Below are positions 46,062 to 54,757 of a stretch of 64,000 bases of DNA, piece by piece. Origin of the DNA: Escherichia phage ECO340P1; the sequence record OP172791, one strand, 5' to 3'. The notes beneath the pieces are model-generated. The model was not told the origin of the DNA and made no database searches. It saw nothing but the letters and a program-made list of their open reading frames with translations. The position numbers and the translations under genes were made by a program. The first letter of the stretch is position 1; every line of letters begins with the position of its first letter.

Positions 46062-46856
46062 TTGAGCAAGTTGAACACACTTGATCAATATTACACTAAC
46101 CCCGCTTATGCGGGGTTCTTATGTGATAAGATCAAAGAAATTTTTGGAGAGGAAGCTAACTACGTAGAACCATCTGCGGGAGAAGGAGCTTTCTCTTCTT
46201 GTTTTAAAAACATAACTTCTTTTGATATTGACCCTAAGTTTGAAGATTGTATTGAGGCAGATTTTTTAGCTCAATCTGTTGAGTCTGTTGGTAGTGTAAC
46301 TGCTTTTGTCGGTAATCCTCCATTTGGAAAAAATGCTAGTCTTGCCATTAAATTCTTTAACCATTGTGCTGAAATGCTGGATAACGAAGGTGGTATTTGT
46401 TTTATCTTGCCTCGCACATTTCAAAAAATCTTTTTTGCACACAAGCTAAATCCCCATATGCATCTTCTTTACGAAGAAGAATGTCCAAAAGGATCTTTTA
46501 TTCTTCATGGAGAACCTTGGGATGTTCCTTGTGTATTCCAGGTATGGATTAAACGCAACGAGAAGCGTTCTCCCGTTGTTTTAGGAGAGAATCGACTATT
46601 CGTATTAGGTAACAGTAAAGACTACGATATAGCCGTTAGGAGAGCGGGAGCAAGTGCAGGTAAAGTGTTATCAGAAGAAGATTCTTTATCTGAAGCATCT
46701 ACCTATTTTTTAAAAGCCTTGACTTCTGATCTTAAAACGCGTATCATTGAGGCTTACCCGTTACTTAAAGCTGAAGCTAGTAAAACTGCGGGAGTAAGAA
46801 GTTTAAGTTTAAAAGAACTTCAGTGGGTTCTGGAGAACATTAGAAAGGAGGAATAG
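46062..46856 (+). CDS. DNA N6-adenine or N4-cytosine methyltransferase (gamma-class-like)
   Basis: TTG start after SD AAGGAGG; motif order QYYTNP, EPSAGEGAF, VGNPPFG. Confidence 0.75.
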   Translation: MSKLNTLDQYYTNPAYAGFLCDKIKEIFGEEANYVEPSAGEGAFSSCFKNITSFDIDPKFEDCIEADFLAQSVESVGSVTAFVGNPPFGKNASLAIKFFNHCAEMLDNEGGICFILPRTFQKIFFAHKLNPHMHLLYEEECPKGSFILHGEPWDVPCVFQVWIKRNEKRSPVVLGENRLFVLGNSKDYDIAVRRAGASAGKVLSEEDSLSEASTYFLKALTSDLKTRIIEAYPLLKAEASKTAGVRSLSLKELQWVLENIRKEE

Positions 46857-49453
46857 TGAGTAAGTTTACATGGGATATTGAAGCAAACGGATTGTTGAAT
46901 AATGACACTATTGATTATTTAGCTAGTCCTTATCGTCTCAAAGACACATTTCAAATGCACTGTATTGTCTTAGAGAACCATGAAACAGGAGAAATAGTAG
47001 CTTTCCACGATGGCCCTAAATACATCTTTGATGGGCGTCCTTACGAAGAGTCAGATGGTAAATACACATATGTTCTTAAAGAGTATGTGGCGCAAGATTA
47101 CACACATTTTCAACTAAAAGATTTCCCAGATTTTATTAATCATGAAGGTTATTTTAAAGACAAGCCTGAATATCTAGTTGAAATGGCTGTGGCTCACAAC
47201 GGTATCAACTACGACTGGTTGGCTACAAAACTGTTTTATGGATTAGATTACAGTGTTAAATATAATACGTGGGGCAAAAATAAGGTAAAACTTATTGACT
47301 CCTTGATTTTGAGTAAAGTGTTAAACCCAGATCGAAAGATTGAGGGCAAATCAGGACATAGCTTGGCAGCACTTTCTCGAAAAGCAGGTGGTGATGTAAA
47401 AATAGATTTCCGTAAAGAGATTCCAGAAGAAGATCGATTTAAGACTTTTGCTGCGGATATGCTTTATTACTGTATCTATGACAACAAAGCCAATACGAGC
47501 GTATATAATTACCTTATGGAAGAATGGGGTGATTATGATAAATGGGAAGGTCCATTTGAACTTGAACAACGTGTAGCAGACATTATTACACGCCAGGAAC
47601 ACCGTGGGTTTGCTTTTAACATGAAACAAGCAGAAGAGAACCTTGCTTTTTTGGATGCAGAAATGGAGCGTCTTCGTTTACTCGTTGAGCCTATTTTGCC
47701 ACCTAAACCAGCAACAAAAGGTTATCTTAAGGCTTTTATTCCACCTAAGTTGCAAATTAAAAAGAACTTAGAGCCAACTAACCATATGATCAATTTTGCT
47801 AAGAAACATGATGGTCATTTGGAAGAGAGGGATGGCGATTGGTGGTTAGTTATGTTGGGGAAAGAGTGGAAACTGCCAGTTGCAGCAGATGAGCCTCTAT
47901 GTGATCCTAACATTCCTGCAACATTGAACGATACAACCCATATTAAAAACTGGCTTGTAGGATTAGGTTGGGTACCGTCTGAATATAAAGATAAAGACTT
48001 GACGCTTAAATCTGGCACCAAAATTAAAAAGAGCGAGGAAGAACTTCAGAAAGGTATTAGAGCTTACGTTGAGCAAACTCTATCTTCTAATTTTTGTCAG
48101 GATCGTTGTGATCATCTGGAGTGCACACCGGAAACTTTGGAAAGGAAGATTCAAGAGCGTATAGCAAAAGGTAAAGGTCGCGGTCTTAAAGTATTGACTA
48201 ACCCATGTTTTACCAAAGGTCAGGAAAAAGAAATTTGTCCTAACCTGCAAGCTTTGGGTGAGAAATTTCCTTATGCTACACAGATTGTAGAATACTTAAC
48301 GTATAAGCATCGTAGGAACTCTATTTTAGGTGGCGGTGCTGATTGGGAAGAAGATGAAGAAGATCAAGAATACGATAAAGGTTTCTTAGCCGCAGTAAGG
48401 GCGGATGGGCGTATTCCTACACCAGCCGCTACATGTGATGCTGCAACCTCTCGTATGAAACATAGATCTGTAGCTAATATTCCTCGTGTCACATCTTTGT
48501 TTGGATGGGAGATGCGTAACTTGTTTGGTGTAGAGGTTCCTAAATACTTCCAGATCGGCTACGACTTCGACTCTTTGGAAGCAAAAATTGAATCACATTA
48601 CTGTTGGCGGTACGAGCCGGAGCCACACGAGTATTGTAACGCTCTGTTGTTAGAGAAACCTAATGATGTTCACACAATGATGGCAAAACGTATCACTGAA
48701 ACTATTGGACGTAAATTTGAACGTAGTCCTGCTAAATCTGTTAAGTATGGTATTACCTATGGTGCACAAGCCGACAAGGTTGCTAAAACAATTGGTAGCG
48801 ACAAGTTTACAGGTCAATTGGTGTTCGATGCTTTCTGGGAAGCTGCATTCCCATTGGCGCGTCTTAAAGAACGTTTAAACGATTTCTGGGTTAAGACTGG
48901 TAAACAATATGTTTTGGGTATTGACGGTCGTAAGGTTCCTACTCGTTCTGCTCACGCGATTCTTAACTCTCTGTTCCAAAGCGGTGGGGTTATCTGTGCT
49001 AAACGTGCAATGGTTATTTATGATGACATGATCGAAGAAGAAGGGCTAAGTGTTGACTTCTTTAAAGATGACTGGAAGAATAAAGACTTCGTGCAACAAA
49101 TGATTGCATATCACGATGAAGCCCAGCTTGAAGTTTCTCGTAACCTTGTAGAATTCAAATGGTTTTCACCTGAATCATTAGGTTGGAAGAAAGTAGACGA
49201 TCCTGAAGAACAAAAGAAAATTGATAAAGAATGCCTTGCTAAAGTCGAAGAATGGAAGCATAATAAGGAAAAAGAGACAGGGCAAATTTGGGCTAACATT
49301 CATGAATCTCCCAAAGGTGGATGGTTTACAGCCTATAGTCGGGCAGGTGAACTTGCTGCTTTAGCTGTTACTAAAGCTGGAGAATTTTACAATCTTAATG
49401 TTCAGCTTACTGCTGGATATGACGTGGGGAATTCCTGGGCCAGTTGTCACTAA
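46856..49453 (+). CDS. family A DNA polymerase with 3-prime to 5-prime exonuclease
   Basis: GTG start after SD AAAGGAGGAA; Exo I WDIEANGL; motif A GYDFDSLEAKI; motif B RSPAKSVKYGITYGA; motif C YHDEAQ. Confidence 0.9.
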   Translation: MSKFTWDIEANGLLNNDTIDYLASPYRLKDTFQMHCIVLENHETGEIVAFHDGPKYIFDGRPYEESDGKYTYVLKEYVAQDYTHFQLKDFPDFINHEGYFKDKPEYLVEMAVAHNGINYDWLATKLFYGLDYSVKYNTWGKNKVKLIDSLILSKVLNPDRKIEGKSGHSLAALSRKAGGDVKIDFRKEIPEEDRFKTFAADMLYYCIYDNKANTSVYNYLMEEWGDYDKWEGPFELEQRVADIITRQEHRGFAFNMKQAEENLAFLDAEMERLRLLVEPILPPKPATKGYLKAFIPPKLQIKKNLEPTNHMINFAKKHDGHLEERDGDWWLVMLGKEWKLPVAADEPLCDPNIPATLNDTTHIKNWLVGLGWVPSEYKDKDLTLKSGTKIKKSEEELQKGIRAYVEQTLSSNFCQDRCDHLECTPETLERKIQERIAKGKGRGLKVLTNPCFTKGQEKEICPNLQALGEKFPYATQIVEYLTYKHRRNSILGGGADWEEDEEDQEYDKGFLAAVRADGRIPTPAATCDAATSRMKHRSVANIPRVTSLFGWEMRNLFGVEVPKYFQIGYDFDSLEAKIESHYCWRYEPEPHEYCNALLLEKPNDVHTMMAKRITETIGRKFERSPAKSVKYGITYGAQADKVAKTIGSDKFTGQLVFDAFWEAAFPLARLKERLNDFWVKTGKQYVLGIDGRKVPTRSAHAILNSLFQSGGVICAKRAMVIYDDMIEEEGLSVDFFKDDWKNKDFVQQMIAYHDEAQLEVSRNLVEFKWFSPESLGWKKVDDPEEQKKIDKECLAKVEEWKHNKEKETGQIWANIHESPKGGWFTAYSRAGELAALAVTKAGEFYNLNVQLTAGYDVGNSWASCH

Positions 49454-49502: not shown

Positions 49503-49694
49503 ATGAGTTACGATTTAGATTGTTTTGGTATGCCTTACCTACCAGATGAATTTGAAGGTAAAGAAGAACGTGAATGGGACGATGGGGATATCCGTTGTTG
49601 GTCTTGTGGTAAAGATATGTCTTATGAACAACATATGCACAATGATGGTTTCTGCATACATTGCTATAATGAAATTGATCTGGAGGAAGATTAA
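49503..49694 (+). CDS. small Cys-rich protein (63 aa)
   Basis: ATG 49503 with SD AGGAGAAG; CWSCG and CIHC motifs. Confidence 0.45.
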   Translation: MSYDLDCFGMPYLPDEFEGKEEREWDDGDIRCWSCGKDMSYEQHMHNDGFCIHCYNEIDLEED

Positions 49695-49871: not shown

Positions 49872-50090
49872 ATGCGTAAATTAGTGAGCTTTAATGTTTC
49901 AATTCTTGTTGATGAACAAAATGAAGATGTTATTAAAGGTCTTGCAAATAAGATTGCAGGTGGAATGACGGAAGCTGAAGTGTGGGAAGAATGTGCTCGA
50001 CTTTATGAGGAAGGTGTTATTGAGGTCTTGGGGGATGAGATTAATATGGACGATGTTGTAAAAGTAACTGTGGAGCGTATCAATGACTAA
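49872..50090 (+). CDS. hypothetical protein (72 aa)
   Basis: ORF with SD AAGGAGAAAA. Confidence 0.5.
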   Translation: MRKLVSFNVSILVDEQNEDVIKGLANKIAGGMTEAEVWEECARLYEEGVIEVLGDEINMDDVVKVTVERIND

Positions 50091-50676
50091 ATCAAAACAA
50101 ATCAATATTGCCAAAGAAATTCTTACCGTATTAAAGATCGCTGATCCTAATTCTGTCTTGGCTGGCGGTGCTGTTCGTGATTGGCGTATTCTTGATATTG
50201 CTGGACGTGATCTGGATTTCTATACATCCCTTCCTGCACATCGGACTGAAGAACAAATACAAGGATTAATTGCATCTGCTTTAATGGGAACCAATATTCG
50301 TAAACTAGGAAACAAAGAGGCTTCTGACAATTATGAAGGTGTTACTGGTCTTAAACACGTTTTTGAGTTTGAACGTGATGGTCAGCTTTGCAACCTTATG
50401 ATTATGGAACCAAGCGTAATGACAACCTTTCTAAATGAGTTCGATCTGTCCATCTGCCAGGCTGCATTTGATGGGAAGGATTGTTATTATTCTAAAGATT
50501 TTGAAACAACCTTGGAAACAGGGATCTGCTTCTTGCACAAAGACGTTAGAGAAGATGCCAAACACGTTATTAAAATTGCTACACGTTTCCCATATCTTCG
50601 TTTTGTGAAAGAGGTTAAGGTTCCACGTCCACCTCAAGTAGATACCAGATTGGAAGAAGATGATATTCCTTGGTAA
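50083..50676 (+). CDS. minimal nucleotidyltransferase (Pol beta superfamily, CCA-adding/poly(A) polymerase head-like)
   Basis: Motif LAGGAVRDW..LDIAGRDLDF matches CCA-type head domain GGAVRD...D.D. Confidence 0.6.
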   Translation: MTKSKQINIAKEILTVLKIADPNSVLAGGAVRDWRILDIAGRDLDFYTSLPAHRTEEQIQGLIASALMGTNIRKLGNKEASDNYEGVTGLKHVFEFERDGQLCNLMIMEPSVMTTFLNEFDLSICQAAFDGKDCYYSKDFETTLETGICFLHKDVREDAKHVIKIATRFPYLRFVKEVKVPRPPQVDTRLEEDDIPW

Positions 50677-50683
50677 TTAAAGC

Positions 50684-50713
50684 TTGACAATATTAAACAT
50701 TTTATGATAGGAT
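50684..50713 (+). promoter_or_regulatory. sigma70-type promoter for 50722
   Basis: TTGACA 50684-50689, N18, TAGGAT. Confidence 0.45.
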
Positions 50714-50721
50714 AGCATTCA

Positions 50722-51114
50722 ATGACTGAACGTTCTAAGATAGCTGTTGAAACTGTTTATGGAAACTATACCAGTTTGACACTAGTTGAGAAAAATGTTG
50801 TAGGTCTTGACAACTCTTTTTATTTTCAAATTTTGGTTATTCAAGGTGGAAACAAGAAGCTAACTGCTCGTGTTGAAACATCTGAAATAATTGAAACCAC
50901 TGTTACAAACAAAGAATTCATTTCACTGCAAGATACAATCCGAAACGTTATAGACGAAGAAGGCAAAGCTGCCACAATTAAACTCGGAGGTTTCCCAGTG
51001 CAAATAGTTCATTTTCCTAATGGTGAAATTGGAGTTGGAATAGGTAAAGGTAAATACCTGTTAGAGCAAGATGATATGGAAAGACTCCGTTCTTTCTGTG
51101 CAAAATTAATGTAA
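50722..51114 (+). CDS. hypothetical protein (130 aa)
   Basis: ORF after promoter TTGACA-N18-TAGGAT; weak SD. Confidence 0.5.
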   Translation: MTERSKIAVETVYGNYTSLTLVEKNVVGLDNSFYFQILVIQGGNKKLTARVETSEIIETTVTNKEFISLQDTIRNVIDEEGKAATIKLGGFPVQIVHFPNGEIGVGIGKGKYLLEQDDMERLRSFCAKLM

Positions 51115-51130
51115 TGTAGAGGAGATAATA

Positions 51131-52018
51131 ATGTCCGTAATTAATACTGAAACTGATCGTAAAGGCAAAACCGTAACTTATGCAACTGGTATCGTAGACT
51201 ACGTTAAACTGGATAAATTCGCTGAACCTAAAACTTTTCATTGGGAAGGAAAAACGATTGTTTCAACTCACCGAGCTTCTCTTGTTCTGAAAGAGAAAGG
51301 TGCTAAACCAGATGAGAAAGGTGTTTGGATTTCTCTTGGTGACATTGAACTGAAAGAAGGTTATGAAAACCTGCAAGTCAAAGAAGGTGATAATTGGATC
51401 ACTATTGAAAAAGGTGTAGAAGTAAGTATTGATATTGATCGCGTTGATAATAAAGGCGGTAAAACTTACTACAATACTAAAAAATCTCGTATTACAGTAT
51501 TGTCTACCGATGGTGTTCAGAAGTCTAACAAATCTTCTGGCAATAAAGGTTCCAACGATGCTGCTCCTAAGCAATCCTATAAAAAACGTGATACTGTAGG
51601 TCTGGAAACTGGTCACGCAGTAAATGGTGCACTGGAACTGATTCGTAATGGTGTTAAAGGCGATGCTTTCGATATCGCTGGGGTTGTTCAATCTGCAACT
51701 GTCACGCTGAAATCGGAAATTGCTGAATCTCGTGGCGTTGATATTAATGATTATGATCTTGGGGCATCTGTTGGTCACGCTATTCTTAATGCTTGTAAAG
51801 ACCATACCATTAAGACTGTATCTGTAGAAGATCTGATTGACTCTGCTCGTAAAGTTCTAGCTCTGTCTGATAAAGTTGCTGCTGCCATTCGTGGTTCCGC
51901 AGAACAACCTAAGAAAGAAGAGAAGAAAGAAGTTAAAAAGCCTGAACCACAACCAGAACCAACTCCAAGCAATCAAGAAGAACCTCCAATGGACTTCGAT
52001 GATGATATTCCATTCTGA
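51131..52018 (+). CDS. single-stranded DNA-binding-like protein with SSB-type acidic C-terminal tail
   Basis: C-terminus PPMDFDDDIPF matches E. coli SSB tail; Lys/Pro/Glu-rich linker before it. Confidence 0.6.
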   Translation: MSVINTETDRKGKTVTYATGIVDYVKLDKFAEPKTFHWEGKTIVSTHRASLVLKEKGAKPDEKGVWISLGDIELKEGYENLQVKEGDNWITIEKGVEVSIDIDRVDNKGGKTYYNTKKSRITVLSTDGVQKSNKSSGNKGSNDAAPKQSYKKRDTVGLETGHAVNGALELIRNGVKGDAFDIAGVVQSATVTLKSEIAESRGVDINDYDLGASVGHAILNACKDHTIKTVSVEDLIDSARKVLALSDKVAAAIRGSAEQPKKEEKKEVKKPEPQPEPTPSNQEEPPMDFDDDIPF

Positions 52019-52051
52019 TCTTATTGATTTATAAAGAGTTTTTATAAAAGA

Positions 52052-52081
52052 AAAGGGAACCTTTGCGGGTTCCCTTTTTTA
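52052..52081. terminator. bidirectional terminator between convergent SSB-like and tail fiber genes
   Basis: AAAGGGAACC-TTTGC-GGGTTCCCTTT with A/T runs on both sides. Confidence 0.7.
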
Positions 52082-54757
52082 TTAGTCGTAATATTTCAAA
52101 CCTGTAATGAACTTCGATCCCCAATCCGCACTTGCGGCGGTGAACGTCAACATCCAAGTTGTAGCTGTACCAGTGAAGACCTCTCGTTGCACAGTACCAT
52201 CAGTGTGGTAAATGTCCACGCCAGTATGTCCATTCTTAGGAATAGTGAAGGTAACAGCACTGGTAGTGTCTCGTGCATAAGAACAAACAAATGGTGTCCC
52301 CGCCCAAACTGGATTTGTCATATCACCCATCTCAAGCTGTGGAACCCAAGCAATAAGACCTGCCGTACCATCTCCTGCGAAAGTGTCTGATCCACTTGCA
52401 TTCAAAGCTATAATCTCATAGGTTATAGATGCTTGTTTGGCAACTGTCACTTTGTGTAGAATTACACGATACCAACCGTTCCCCATATCGATTATGTTTG
52501 CATCTGCACCTGTAAATGTTCCAGCTACAAGATCATAAGTCCCTTCGTTAATCTCATCTCCTGAAGTCAATTTGAGTTTCACTTTAGTGATCCCGTCTGG
52601 CTTCAAGAATACGGATGCCGCCCAGTGCTTACCTGCTGTAATATCAGAAGCTGTATTCACTGCTGATAAAATATGTTGTCCTGAAGTTGTAGAAGGTGTT
52701 AACTTGTAAGTGTTAGCCGTAGTTCCAACCGGAGAGTTGATTGTTGATGCTGTGACTGTCAAGTTCGTCTTCAACCACGGGGAAGCTGTTGTCAAGTTAT
52801 TGTTGATAAAGATATGTGTACGGTTGGCTGCTACAACACGTCTACCTTGTGGAGTTGTACCAACATATTCTAAAGGTGCTACGGGAGCAGAACTCTCTGT
52901 AGGTACAAGGATATCTCCAGAAGCCCTGGCATAACGGTTACTCCTGTTGACCTTTACATCCGCCGGAATAGTTTCTTGCGTCAAATCATAGTCCATCACA
53001 ATGACCACAGCATTCACTGTGAGATAAGAACTATCTTCGGCAGTTACCACACCTTGATAAGTTGCTCTACAACCGATACGACAACCTCCATCAGCAACCG
53101 CTGTAATAACGCCTGTAACGGGGTCAACTGTTGCTACCGTAGGGTCATTAGAGAAATACTCAACAACCACACCAGGTAAGCTTGCTGCTCCTGTTGGCGT
53201 TATTTCTGCTACCATTGTTTGTGTTGTTCCTACATCCATCGCAGATAAGCTAGGAGTGTAAACGCTCAATGTTGAAGCATATCCTCCAGAGGTATCTGAT
53301 AAAGTTGTTCCTTCAGCGTTTAAGGCTGTCATACCTGCATCAAAACCACCTTCTGCATGGAAAGTCATTAAACCAGTAGATGATATTGTCATGTTTGCAG
53401 GGGCAGAAGAAGTGTATTTAATATTGAAAAGTTTACCTCCTTCTGGGCTAACAGAATGTGTCAACTGTTTAGTTCCACCTACAATACAAATTCCTAAAGA
53501 ATCTGTAGTTAAGCCAGTTGCCAGAATATCACCCGTAATCACGGAGCTTGCTATTGGTGTGAATTTATTATAGTTTAGACCACTATTGAACAGATACGAG
53601 GCTTTCCCATCTTTCCAAATACCGGAATAATACATATCCCCGTTATAAACGAAAAAGGTTCCTTGATAACCTAATTGGTTAGTAATATCCATATTCAGCG
53701 TATGAACGCTTGTGAGCTTGTTTATATCCCAGGAACCCACTCCTTCAGGTTTAACTGGTTTTCCCACTTGGAGTGGATCTCCGCTCGCAGAATCATACCC
53801 CAAACCTAAGTTTGCAGTGTAGTTCTTACCAATAGCCCACAAGGAATTGTTGATCCCAACGAAAAAAGAGTGGCGGCTTGGTGGAAATTTCCATGTTGAG
53901 AAACCTGCTGCAAAGGTATCCAGTTTAGTGTAGGTTGTTTCTGTATTAGACCTGACATATAAGTAGTTTACCGTGCCCGTACCACCGGAGGTATCTCCTA
54001 CAACTATTGTCTGGGAAACTGTATTGATGTAATCTTTGACATACACTGTTTCAGTAGCGGATATCGTGGCATTGACAAAAGCGGTTGTTGTGTTATTATT
54101 ACCTGCTAAACCTTTACTAGCTCCACAAACACGCAAGGTTCCCACATTGTTGACATAAGAGCATTGGTTGTAACCTGCATCAAAAGCAACTGCTGAACTT
54201 GTTATCTGACGAGGAGTAGAAACTTCGTTAGTAGTGCTTGCACCTAAACTACCTACTGTGTTTTGACCCGATCCATAAAGAACACCACTATTCATTAACC
54301 AGAGAGTATTGTTATACCCTCCTTTAACCTCTTTAAGATTGGCTAAAGAAATAGTCCCTGTTATTACAGATGGAAAGCTGGTCCAAGTAGTTACACATGC
54401 ATCCGTACCACCTGCTGCTATAGATCCTACCAACCCTGCTGTCAATCCTGAATATTGCCATCCCCCACTGTTAGTTTTAATAACAAAACAACGATCTGCG
54501 GTAAACACATCCGCTACTACAGTAGAAGCTAAGTGGAAATTATTGAATCGTGCACTACGAGTTCCATCTGCAATCTCACCAAAGAGGTTTGCGCCTTGAG
54601 TAAACAATCTACCATCATTAAGCAAAATTGCCAAACTGCTGTTAGAATTACCAGCGTTATCTGGGTAATCTAAAGTAATTACTTTTTTAACAATACCTGC
54701 TGGCAGAGGAACGACACCAGTGCTGGTCATAATAGTAAATATTGGAATTGGAAACAT
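52082..54757 (-). CDS. large tail fiber / host-specificity protein with Ig-like (Big_2-like) domain
   Basis: 891 aa Gly/Thr/Ser-rich protein; SD GGAGGG; Ig-like segment VATVDPVTGVITAVADG. Confidence 0.7.
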   Translation of the reverse strand: MFPIPIFTIMTSTGVVPLPAGIVKKVITLDYPDNAGNSNSSLAILLNDGRLFTQGANLFGEIADGTRSARFNNFHLASTVVADVFTADRCFVIKTNSGGWQYSGLTAGLVGSIAAGGTDACVTTWTSFPSVITGTISLANLKEVKGGYNNTLWLMNSGVLYGSGQNTVGSLGASTTNEVSTPRQITSSAVAFDAGYNQCSYVNNVGTLRVCGASKGLAGNNNTTTAFVNATISATETVYVKDYINTVSQTIVVGDTSGGTGTVNYLYVRSNTETTYTKLDTFAAGFSTWKFPPSRHSFFVGINNSLWAIGKNYTANLGLGYDSASGDPLQVGKPVKPEGVGSWDINKLTSVHTLNMDITNQLGYQGTFFVYNGDMYYSGIWKDGKASYLFNSGLNYNKFTPIASSVITGDILATGLTTDSLGICIVGGTKQLTHSVSPEGGKLFNIKYTSSAPANMTISSTGLMTFHAEGGFDAGMTALNAEGTTLSDTSGGYASTLSVYTPSLSAMDVGTTQTMVAEITPTGAASLPGVVVEYFSNDPTVATVDPVTGVITAVADGGCRIGCRATYQGVVTAEDSSYLTVNAVVIVMDYDLTQETIPADVKVNRSNRYARASGDILVPTESSAPVAPLEYVGTTPQGRRVVAANRTHIFINNNLTTASPWLKTNLTVTASTINSPVGTTANTYKLTPSTTSGQHILSAVNTASDITAGKHWAASVFLKPDGITKVKLKLTSGDEINEGTYDLVAGTFTGADANIIDMGNGWYRVILHKVTVAKQASITYEIIALNASGSDTFAGDGTAGLIAWVPQLEMGDMTNPVWAGTPFVCSYARDTTSAVTFTIPKNGHTGVDIYHTDGTVQREVFTGTATTWMLTFTAASADWGSKFITGLKYYD

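Follow-up and report, generated by a model that had tools for sequence, protein, structure and literature searches.

In Escherichia coli, the C-terminal tail of the single-stranded DNA (ssDNA)-binding protein SSB is a docking site for a variety of proteins, which include Pol III chi, PriA, RecQ, ExoI, RecO, RNase HI and Ung, and the known SSB-Ct pockets require a free carboxylate on the terminal Phe. Tails of a similar kind also occur in phage T7, in which gp2.5 and gp4 dock on the T7 DNA polymerase through acidic tails with a terminal Phe. A canonical phage SSB with a host-like tail is represented by that of HK620 (PMC5928155). N4 SSB and the DUF669 group have been described as phage SSBs with a "highly evolved OB-fold" (Kazlauskas et al., 2016; PMC4889955), an assignment argued from an acidic tail, genomes without any other SSB, and an OB fold that is difficult to recognise (PMC4889955).

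Where among these systems does the SSB-like protein encoded at 51131..52018 in Escherichia phage ECO340P1 (OP172791; the 64,000-nucleotide stretch analysed here is called the window) stand? With E. coli SSB and the canonical phage and plasmid SSBs (PF00436) it shares a predicted OB fold at the N-terminus, a disordered linker of low complexity and an acidic tip, whereas neither sequence nor profile comparison detects any similarity of its OB domain to theirs, and a basic linker and a highly conserved four-helix domain are added between the OB fold and the tail. Like T7 gp2.5, it is phage-encoded, has an OB fold (predicted here) and an acidic tail with an aromatic end, and its gene accompanies those for a fused primase-helicase and a family A polymerase; no sequence, profile or closest-fold similarity between the two proteins was found. 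Likeness to the OB folds of RPA32/Stn1-type proteins and of mitochondrial or bacterial SSBs exists at the fold level only, with 7-13% sequence identity, and those proteins have other architectures, being subunits of heterotrimers or homotetramers. With N4 SSB and the DUF669 group it has in common the acidic C-terminal tail, an OB fold that eludes sequence comparison and a genome without another SSB, and the same line of argument can be followed here; unlike that group, the present family gives no match to Pfam DUF669 in any of 37 members, and it adds the helical domain and a host-identical tip. With moderate confidence, we favour the reading that the gene product is the phage's own replicative ssDNA-binding protein, built differently from bacterial SSB.

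The gene and its place in the replication block

The coding sequence (51131..52018, plus strand) starts with ATG and, stop codon included, specifies a protein of 295 aa, 32 kDa and pI 5.7, whose C-terminal end, as translated from this ORF, reads ...TPSNQEEPPMDFDDDIPF. The initial annotation had placed an ORF with the tail of E. coli SSB here; its coordinates are exact, and the last 12 residues are indeed identical to the host tail. A Shine-Dalgarno sequence, GAGGAG, can be read directly at 51119..51124 (+) with a spacing of 6 nt to the ATG, and the ribosome-binding site is strong. Downstream, a GC-rich hairpin with A and T runs on either side (52051..52078), a bidirectional intrinsic terminator, stands between the gene and a tail-protein gene that converges on it from the minus strand (52082..54757).

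Co-oriented replication genes form a block that ends with the SSB-like gene; before it come the genes for a Toprim/DnaB primase-helicase, a Dam-like methylase and a family A DNA polymerase, then four small ORFs, a nucleotidyltransferase gene and a 130-aa ORF. The genome also encodes a ligase beside the polymerase and the primase-helicase. The 130-aa protein (50722..51114, +; phrog_16560), whose function is unknown, is encoded immediately upstream of the SSB-like gene. A homolog of it (28% identity, E 2e-10) likewise precedes the SSB-like gene in the divergent relative L007, whose SSB-like protein is only 55% identical to that of the window, and it is possible that the 130-aa protein is a functional partner. 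Upstream of this two-gene unit lies a sigma-70-like promoter candidate (50684..50713, +), TTGACA-18-TAGGAT with an extended TG, which is a consensus match only, in a region where the count of such sites is not above the shuffled expectation; the two genes may be co-transcribed from it.

Two side observations concern the polymerase gene. Just after it, a small ORF of 63 aa (49503-49691, +; phrog_25582) carries a zinc-ribbon-like motif, CWSCG...CIHC. In the 99%-identical relative L005, the polymerase gene product has 1189 aa (1-740 of that locus) versus 865 aa in the window (46856-49453), and an extra 198-aa ORF comes next; this difference is possibly another mobile insertion, an intein or an endonuclease.

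The window belongs to a Phapecoctavirus (phAPEC8-like, Stephanstirmvirinae) and is 98-99.9% identical to many deposited genomes, and among phAPEC8-type phages the SSB-like protein is identical or 98-100% identical. GenBank entries label the gene as "single-stranded DNA-binding protein" in several cases and as "hypothetical protein" in the majority, and our literature searches found no paper on its family. No other annotated SSB is present in the complete 150-kb genome of a 99.1%-identical relative, and tblastn searches with E. coli SSB and T7 gp2.5 matched only the tail of the SSB-like protein and no other SSB.

Domain architecture and the family

By sequence alone, the folded part of the protein is not connected to any SSB. 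Neither the protein nor 37 diverse family members gave a meaningful Pfam match even at E<=10, and the canonical SSB OB-domain profile PF00436 matched none of them at that threshold. The full-length profile match is to PHROG 4477 (phrog_4477; E 2.7e-97), annotated as "unknown function", while SSB PHROGs are touched only by residues from about 250 to 295. Similarly, when the family profile was compared with all PDB sequences, SSB entries were matched through the last 25 residues alone; an OB-only profile found nothing significant in PDB, and a helical-domain-only profile likewise found nothing significant there, without any solved relative. When the family OB profile was aligned by hhalign with E. 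coli SSB and with T7 gp2.5, both comparisons were negative, and this counts against the phage-SSB reading as far as profiles can tell, the E. coli SSB profile being shallow; in a repeat, that profile was built from sequences at least 92% identical, and the repeat is hence uninformative. Family members with different N-termini were also searched for a canonical SSB domain, and none was found, shorter beta domains being present there instead.

The AlphaFold2 model, for which an alignment of 37 sequences was used, has a mean pLDDT of 80 and a pTM of 0.43, such that the packing of the two folded domains against each other is not confident. The first of these domains (aa 1-127; 51131..51511, +) is predicted as a beta domain with an OB fold, a putative ssDNA-binding module, with pLDDT of 79-91 per 10-residue block. 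Its best structural matches are ssDNA-binding OB proteins of the RPA32/Stn1 type and mitochondrial or bacterial SSBs. In 259 family sequences, aromatic positions (H47, W66, W89, Y113 and Y114) and basic positions (K34, K84 and K111) of this domain are conserved, the pattern that would be expected for base stacking and phosphate contacts. The initial annotation had remarked that the N-terminal region does not look like a standard OB-fold SSB. At the level of sequence this holds, with no Pfam SSB match in the 37 members, but at the level of fold it does not; the structure prediction that the annotation had proposed as a check returned an OB fold for aa 1-127, and not the absence of any OB-like fold.

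A basic Gly/Ser/Asn/Lys-rich linker follows (aa 128-153; 51512..51589, +), with pI 10.4, predicted to be disordered (pLDDT <50 at aa 131-149). It leads to the four-helix domain (aa 154-255; 51590..51895, +), whose helices span residues 156-172, 179-201, 208-223 and 232-253 in the model, with pLDDT of 88-95 over most of the domain. This domain is an internal duplication, as its first and second halves align with each other by hhalign at a probability of 93.6% (E 2e-7), and it contains two D-x-x-G-x-x-x-G-H-A-x-x-N-A motifs (GxxxGHAxxNA). No specific structural relative was found for it, the structural matches being generic helical bundles only. It is the most conserved folded part across the family, and that the best-kept part should be an uncharacterised helical domain counts against the phage-SSB reading. 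The remaining parts are a second linker, SAEQPKKEEKKEVKKPEPQPEPTPSNQE (aa 256-283; 51896..51979, +), disordered with pLDDT <50 at aa 262-284 and variable in sequence and length across the family, and the acidic tip of the SSB-Ct type (aa 284-295; 51980..52015, +). The long Lys/Pro/Glu linker noticed in the initial annotation thus corresponds to aa 256-283.

A full HMMER scan of 1.84 billion representatives recovered the family as 331 clusters at 50% identity, 219 of them with E<1e-10 (at 90% identity, 137 clusters were obtained), and by tblastn the protein is present in 319 phage records of the phAPEC8, phi92 and rV5 groups, mainly phages of Escherichia, Klebsiella, Salmonella, Cronobacter, Pectobacterium, Enterobacter and Serratia. 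The architecture is constant: a beta domain, a low-complexity linker, the GHA-helical domain, an acidic linker and an aromatic-terminated tip. Long forms of about 370-425 aa (e.g., rV5 gp209) have an extra segment of about 70 aa between the OB fold and the helical domain, of the form (K/R)[IV](F/Y)G...GGR...SGFK.Y, which may be a second small beta-barrel, and short forms have a minimal beta domain of about 75 aa. Wherever the host of a family member is known, it belongs to the Enterobacterales; the members with variant tails come from metagenomes. About 20 records labelled "Campylobacter phage" (host C. jejuni; among them MG065645, MG065658 and MG065666) carry phAPEC8- or rV5-type copies that are as similar to the query (62.0% and 34.5% identity) as those of E. 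coli phages, and these host labels look doubtful.

The initial annotation had offered a phage ssDNA-binding protein as one possibility. Support for this part comes by inference, from the predicted OB fold with its best matches among ssDNA-binding proteins, the conserved aromatic and basic positions, the place in the replication module and the lack of another SSB. OB folds bind RNA, proteins and sugars too, a point that counts against the phage-SSB reading. Could the protein then be some other OB-fold factor with a tail of the SSB type, such as a PriB-like factor for the primosome or helicase loading, a recombination mediator or annealing protein, or an RNA-binding partner of the nucleotidyltransferase? 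We regard this as improbable, since no sequence or profile link to such families was found, the combination of an OB fold, a disordered linker and an SSB-Ct tip is the signature of SSBs, and the genome would be left without any other SSB candidate.

The host-type tip, a second tailed protein and the endonuclease at the stop codon

In the alignment with 1eqq_A, the protein and E. coli SSB end with the same 12 residues, EPPMDFDDDIPF, and an identity of 11 or 12 residues cannot be due to chance. In the family alignment (A1), D290, P294 and F295 are invariant. The pattern [DE]..[ILV]PF closes 199 of 258 family proteins, 83 of the 258 having exactly DDDIPF, and the 9-mer MDFDDDIPF is kept even in members whose folded domains are only 24-34% identical. 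More distant members have other acidic aromatic tails, e.g., DDLPW, DDGLDF and DDDVF, and some end with IPW or LPW. At the DNA level, similarity to E. coli ssb genes, the matched ones being mostly plasmid-borne, is confined to the last 39-56 nt, with 81-92% identity and synonymous differences throughout, and a recent capture of the tail from a host ssb gene is therefore unsupported. The tail codons also differ at synonymous sites between loci. Taken together with the conservation of the tip at 24-34% identity of the rest, these differences point to long-term purifying selection on the host-identical peptide; by the alignments, the tip is under stronger constraint than everything else in the protein. 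It is this identity to the host tip that makes host SSB-interacting proteins the likely intended partners.

Is such a tip confined to the SSB-like protein? Two genes upstream lies the gene of a 197-aa Pol-beta-type nucleotidyltransferase (50083..50676, +; phrog_10174), which has the motif GGAVRD...DLDF and a weak match to the PolyA_pol head. Its C-terminus reads ...PRPPQVDTRLEEDDIPW (EEDDIPW; tail codons 50659-50673) and is preceded by a Pro-rich linker. Homologs of the nucleotidyltransferase with as little as 59% identity retain the DDIPW tip, behind a linker that is variable. When all six reading frames of the window and 150 kb of a relative's genome were scanned, only three acidic, aromatic-terminated C-termini came up, and only two ending with DDIP[FW], namely those of the SSB-like protein and the nucleotidyltransferase. 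Some members of the SSB family themselves end with IPW or LPW. These observations suggest that the two tails have one shared docking receptor. The initial annotation had passed over this second tail, as well as the helical domain and the SSB labels already given to the gene in GenBank.

A second tip-bearing protein in the same block, together with a tip that is host-identical and strongly conserved and folded domains that sequence does not connect with any SSB family, might be taken to mean that the SSB-like protein does not coat ssDNA at all and is instead a decoy, the other possibility offered in the initial annotation, or an adaptor, which sequesters or redirects host SSB-interacting proteins for host takeover or anti-defence. 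The chance of this seems small to us. Such a decoy would not need an OB fold with conserved aromatic and basic positions; the gene is part of the replication module, in a genome that has its own polymerase, primase-helicase and ligase and would otherwise be without SSB; and a PADLOC scan of the protein matched no defence or anti-defence model.

The allele in the window has the host-type tip free, without any extension. In about 8-12% of family members, 14-17 extra residues of the form [AS]P[ILV]GLQY... follow IPF, an example of such a natural C-terminal extension being APIGLQYGRNFLHCF. The relative L005 discloses how they arise: its divergence from the window starts exactly at the Phe codon and the stop codon, and the inserted DNA is a gene for a 164-aa HNH-type endonuclease (phrog_2340), whose ATG lies inside the extension. 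The insertion thus replaces the stop codon of the SSB-like gene, and the extension overlaps the endonuclease start. An artefact of gene calling and a functional motif were both considered for the extension and rejected, as it is real DNA, accounted for by the left border of the inserted endonuclease gene and its start region. Insertions are found at 3886-4399 of L005, 3671-4213 of L008 and 3744-4367 of L011 (rV5), a truncated endonuclease relic after the extension at 3414-3761 of L007, and only a scar at 3730-3778 of L006; the equivalent of the putative homing site in the window is at 52010-52020, where no insertion is present. The endonuclease has an N-terminal zinc finger, CFKC...CKEC, and, in L005 and L008, a C-terminal part with the HNH motif, whereas the rV5 copy, gp208 after gp209, shares the N-terminus and has a different C-terminal part. 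The positions of these insertions suggest that the endonuclease homes to the conserved tail-coding DNA.

With about 15 residues added after IPF, the carboxylate of the terminal Phe is not free in the extended alleles. As these alleles occur in relatives, among them the cultured phage rV5, a free host-type tip is not indispensable to the growth of such phages. Masking of the terminal Phe in the endonuclease alleles, including rV5, is the main evidence against the host-docking step of the phage-SSB reading in the form of an indispensable free tip. It might then be that the protein is a phage SSB whose tail serves phage-internal roles only, by docking the polymerase or the primase-helicase or by electrostatic autoinhibition of the OB cleft, and that the likeness to the host tail is a by-product. 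In favour of this, the replisome is T7-like, with a fused Toprim/DnaB primase-helicase and a family A polymerase; the DDIPW on the nucleotidyltransferase would fit a common receptor encoded by the phage; the C-terminally extended alleles, e.g., that of rV5, are viable; and distant members manage with DDLPW, DDGLDF or DDDVF. We nevertheless hold it to be rather unlikely, as purely internal roles do not call for an identity of 9-12 residues to the enterobacterial SSB tip amid a drift of the rest to 24-34%.

A proposed role in replication and what it would mean

How, then, would a replicative SSB of this architecture work? We infer ssDNA binding, oligomerisation and docking of host partners for the SSB-like protein. 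The N-terminal OB fold would coat ssDNA exposed by the phage primase-helicase and the family A polymerase, possibly with help from the basic linker next to it. The duplicated four-helix domain could serve self-association or contact with a partner in the phage replisome. The flexible Lys/Pro/Glu linker would present the tip that is identical to the host SSB C-terminus, and through this tip phage ssDNA might recruit, or compete for, those E. coli proteins for which the SSB tail is a docking site.

A wider and more speculative idea, which we put forward only tentatively, is that the host SSB-Ct peptide is a portable docking tag in rV5/phAPEC8-type phages. It would be carried by at least two unrelated proteins, the non-canonical SSB with its duplicated GHA-motif domain and the nucleotidyltransferase, both of them wired into the host SSB interactome, and homing endonucleases would land on the tail-coding DNA and mask the tag. 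The DDIPW tail of the nucleotidyltransferase suggests that the SSB tip is transplantable as a recruitment tag, and the endonuclease alleles are natural "masked-tail" variants that can be directly compared with free-tail alleles.

The most economical reading places the SSB-like protein, from a sizeable uncharacterised family, among the phage SSBs with a host-type tail, as a variant with a new architecture. The rV5, phi92 and phAPEC8 groups are common phages of E. coli, Klebsiella and Salmonella and are candidates for therapy. If the reading is true, the missing SSB slot in the replisome of these groups would be filled, and an SSB architecture that sequence methods miss, composed of an OB fold, a duplicated helical domain and a host-identical tip, would be added to those described. 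It would also provide a clean system in which to ask which host SSB partners a lytic phage needs or neutralises.
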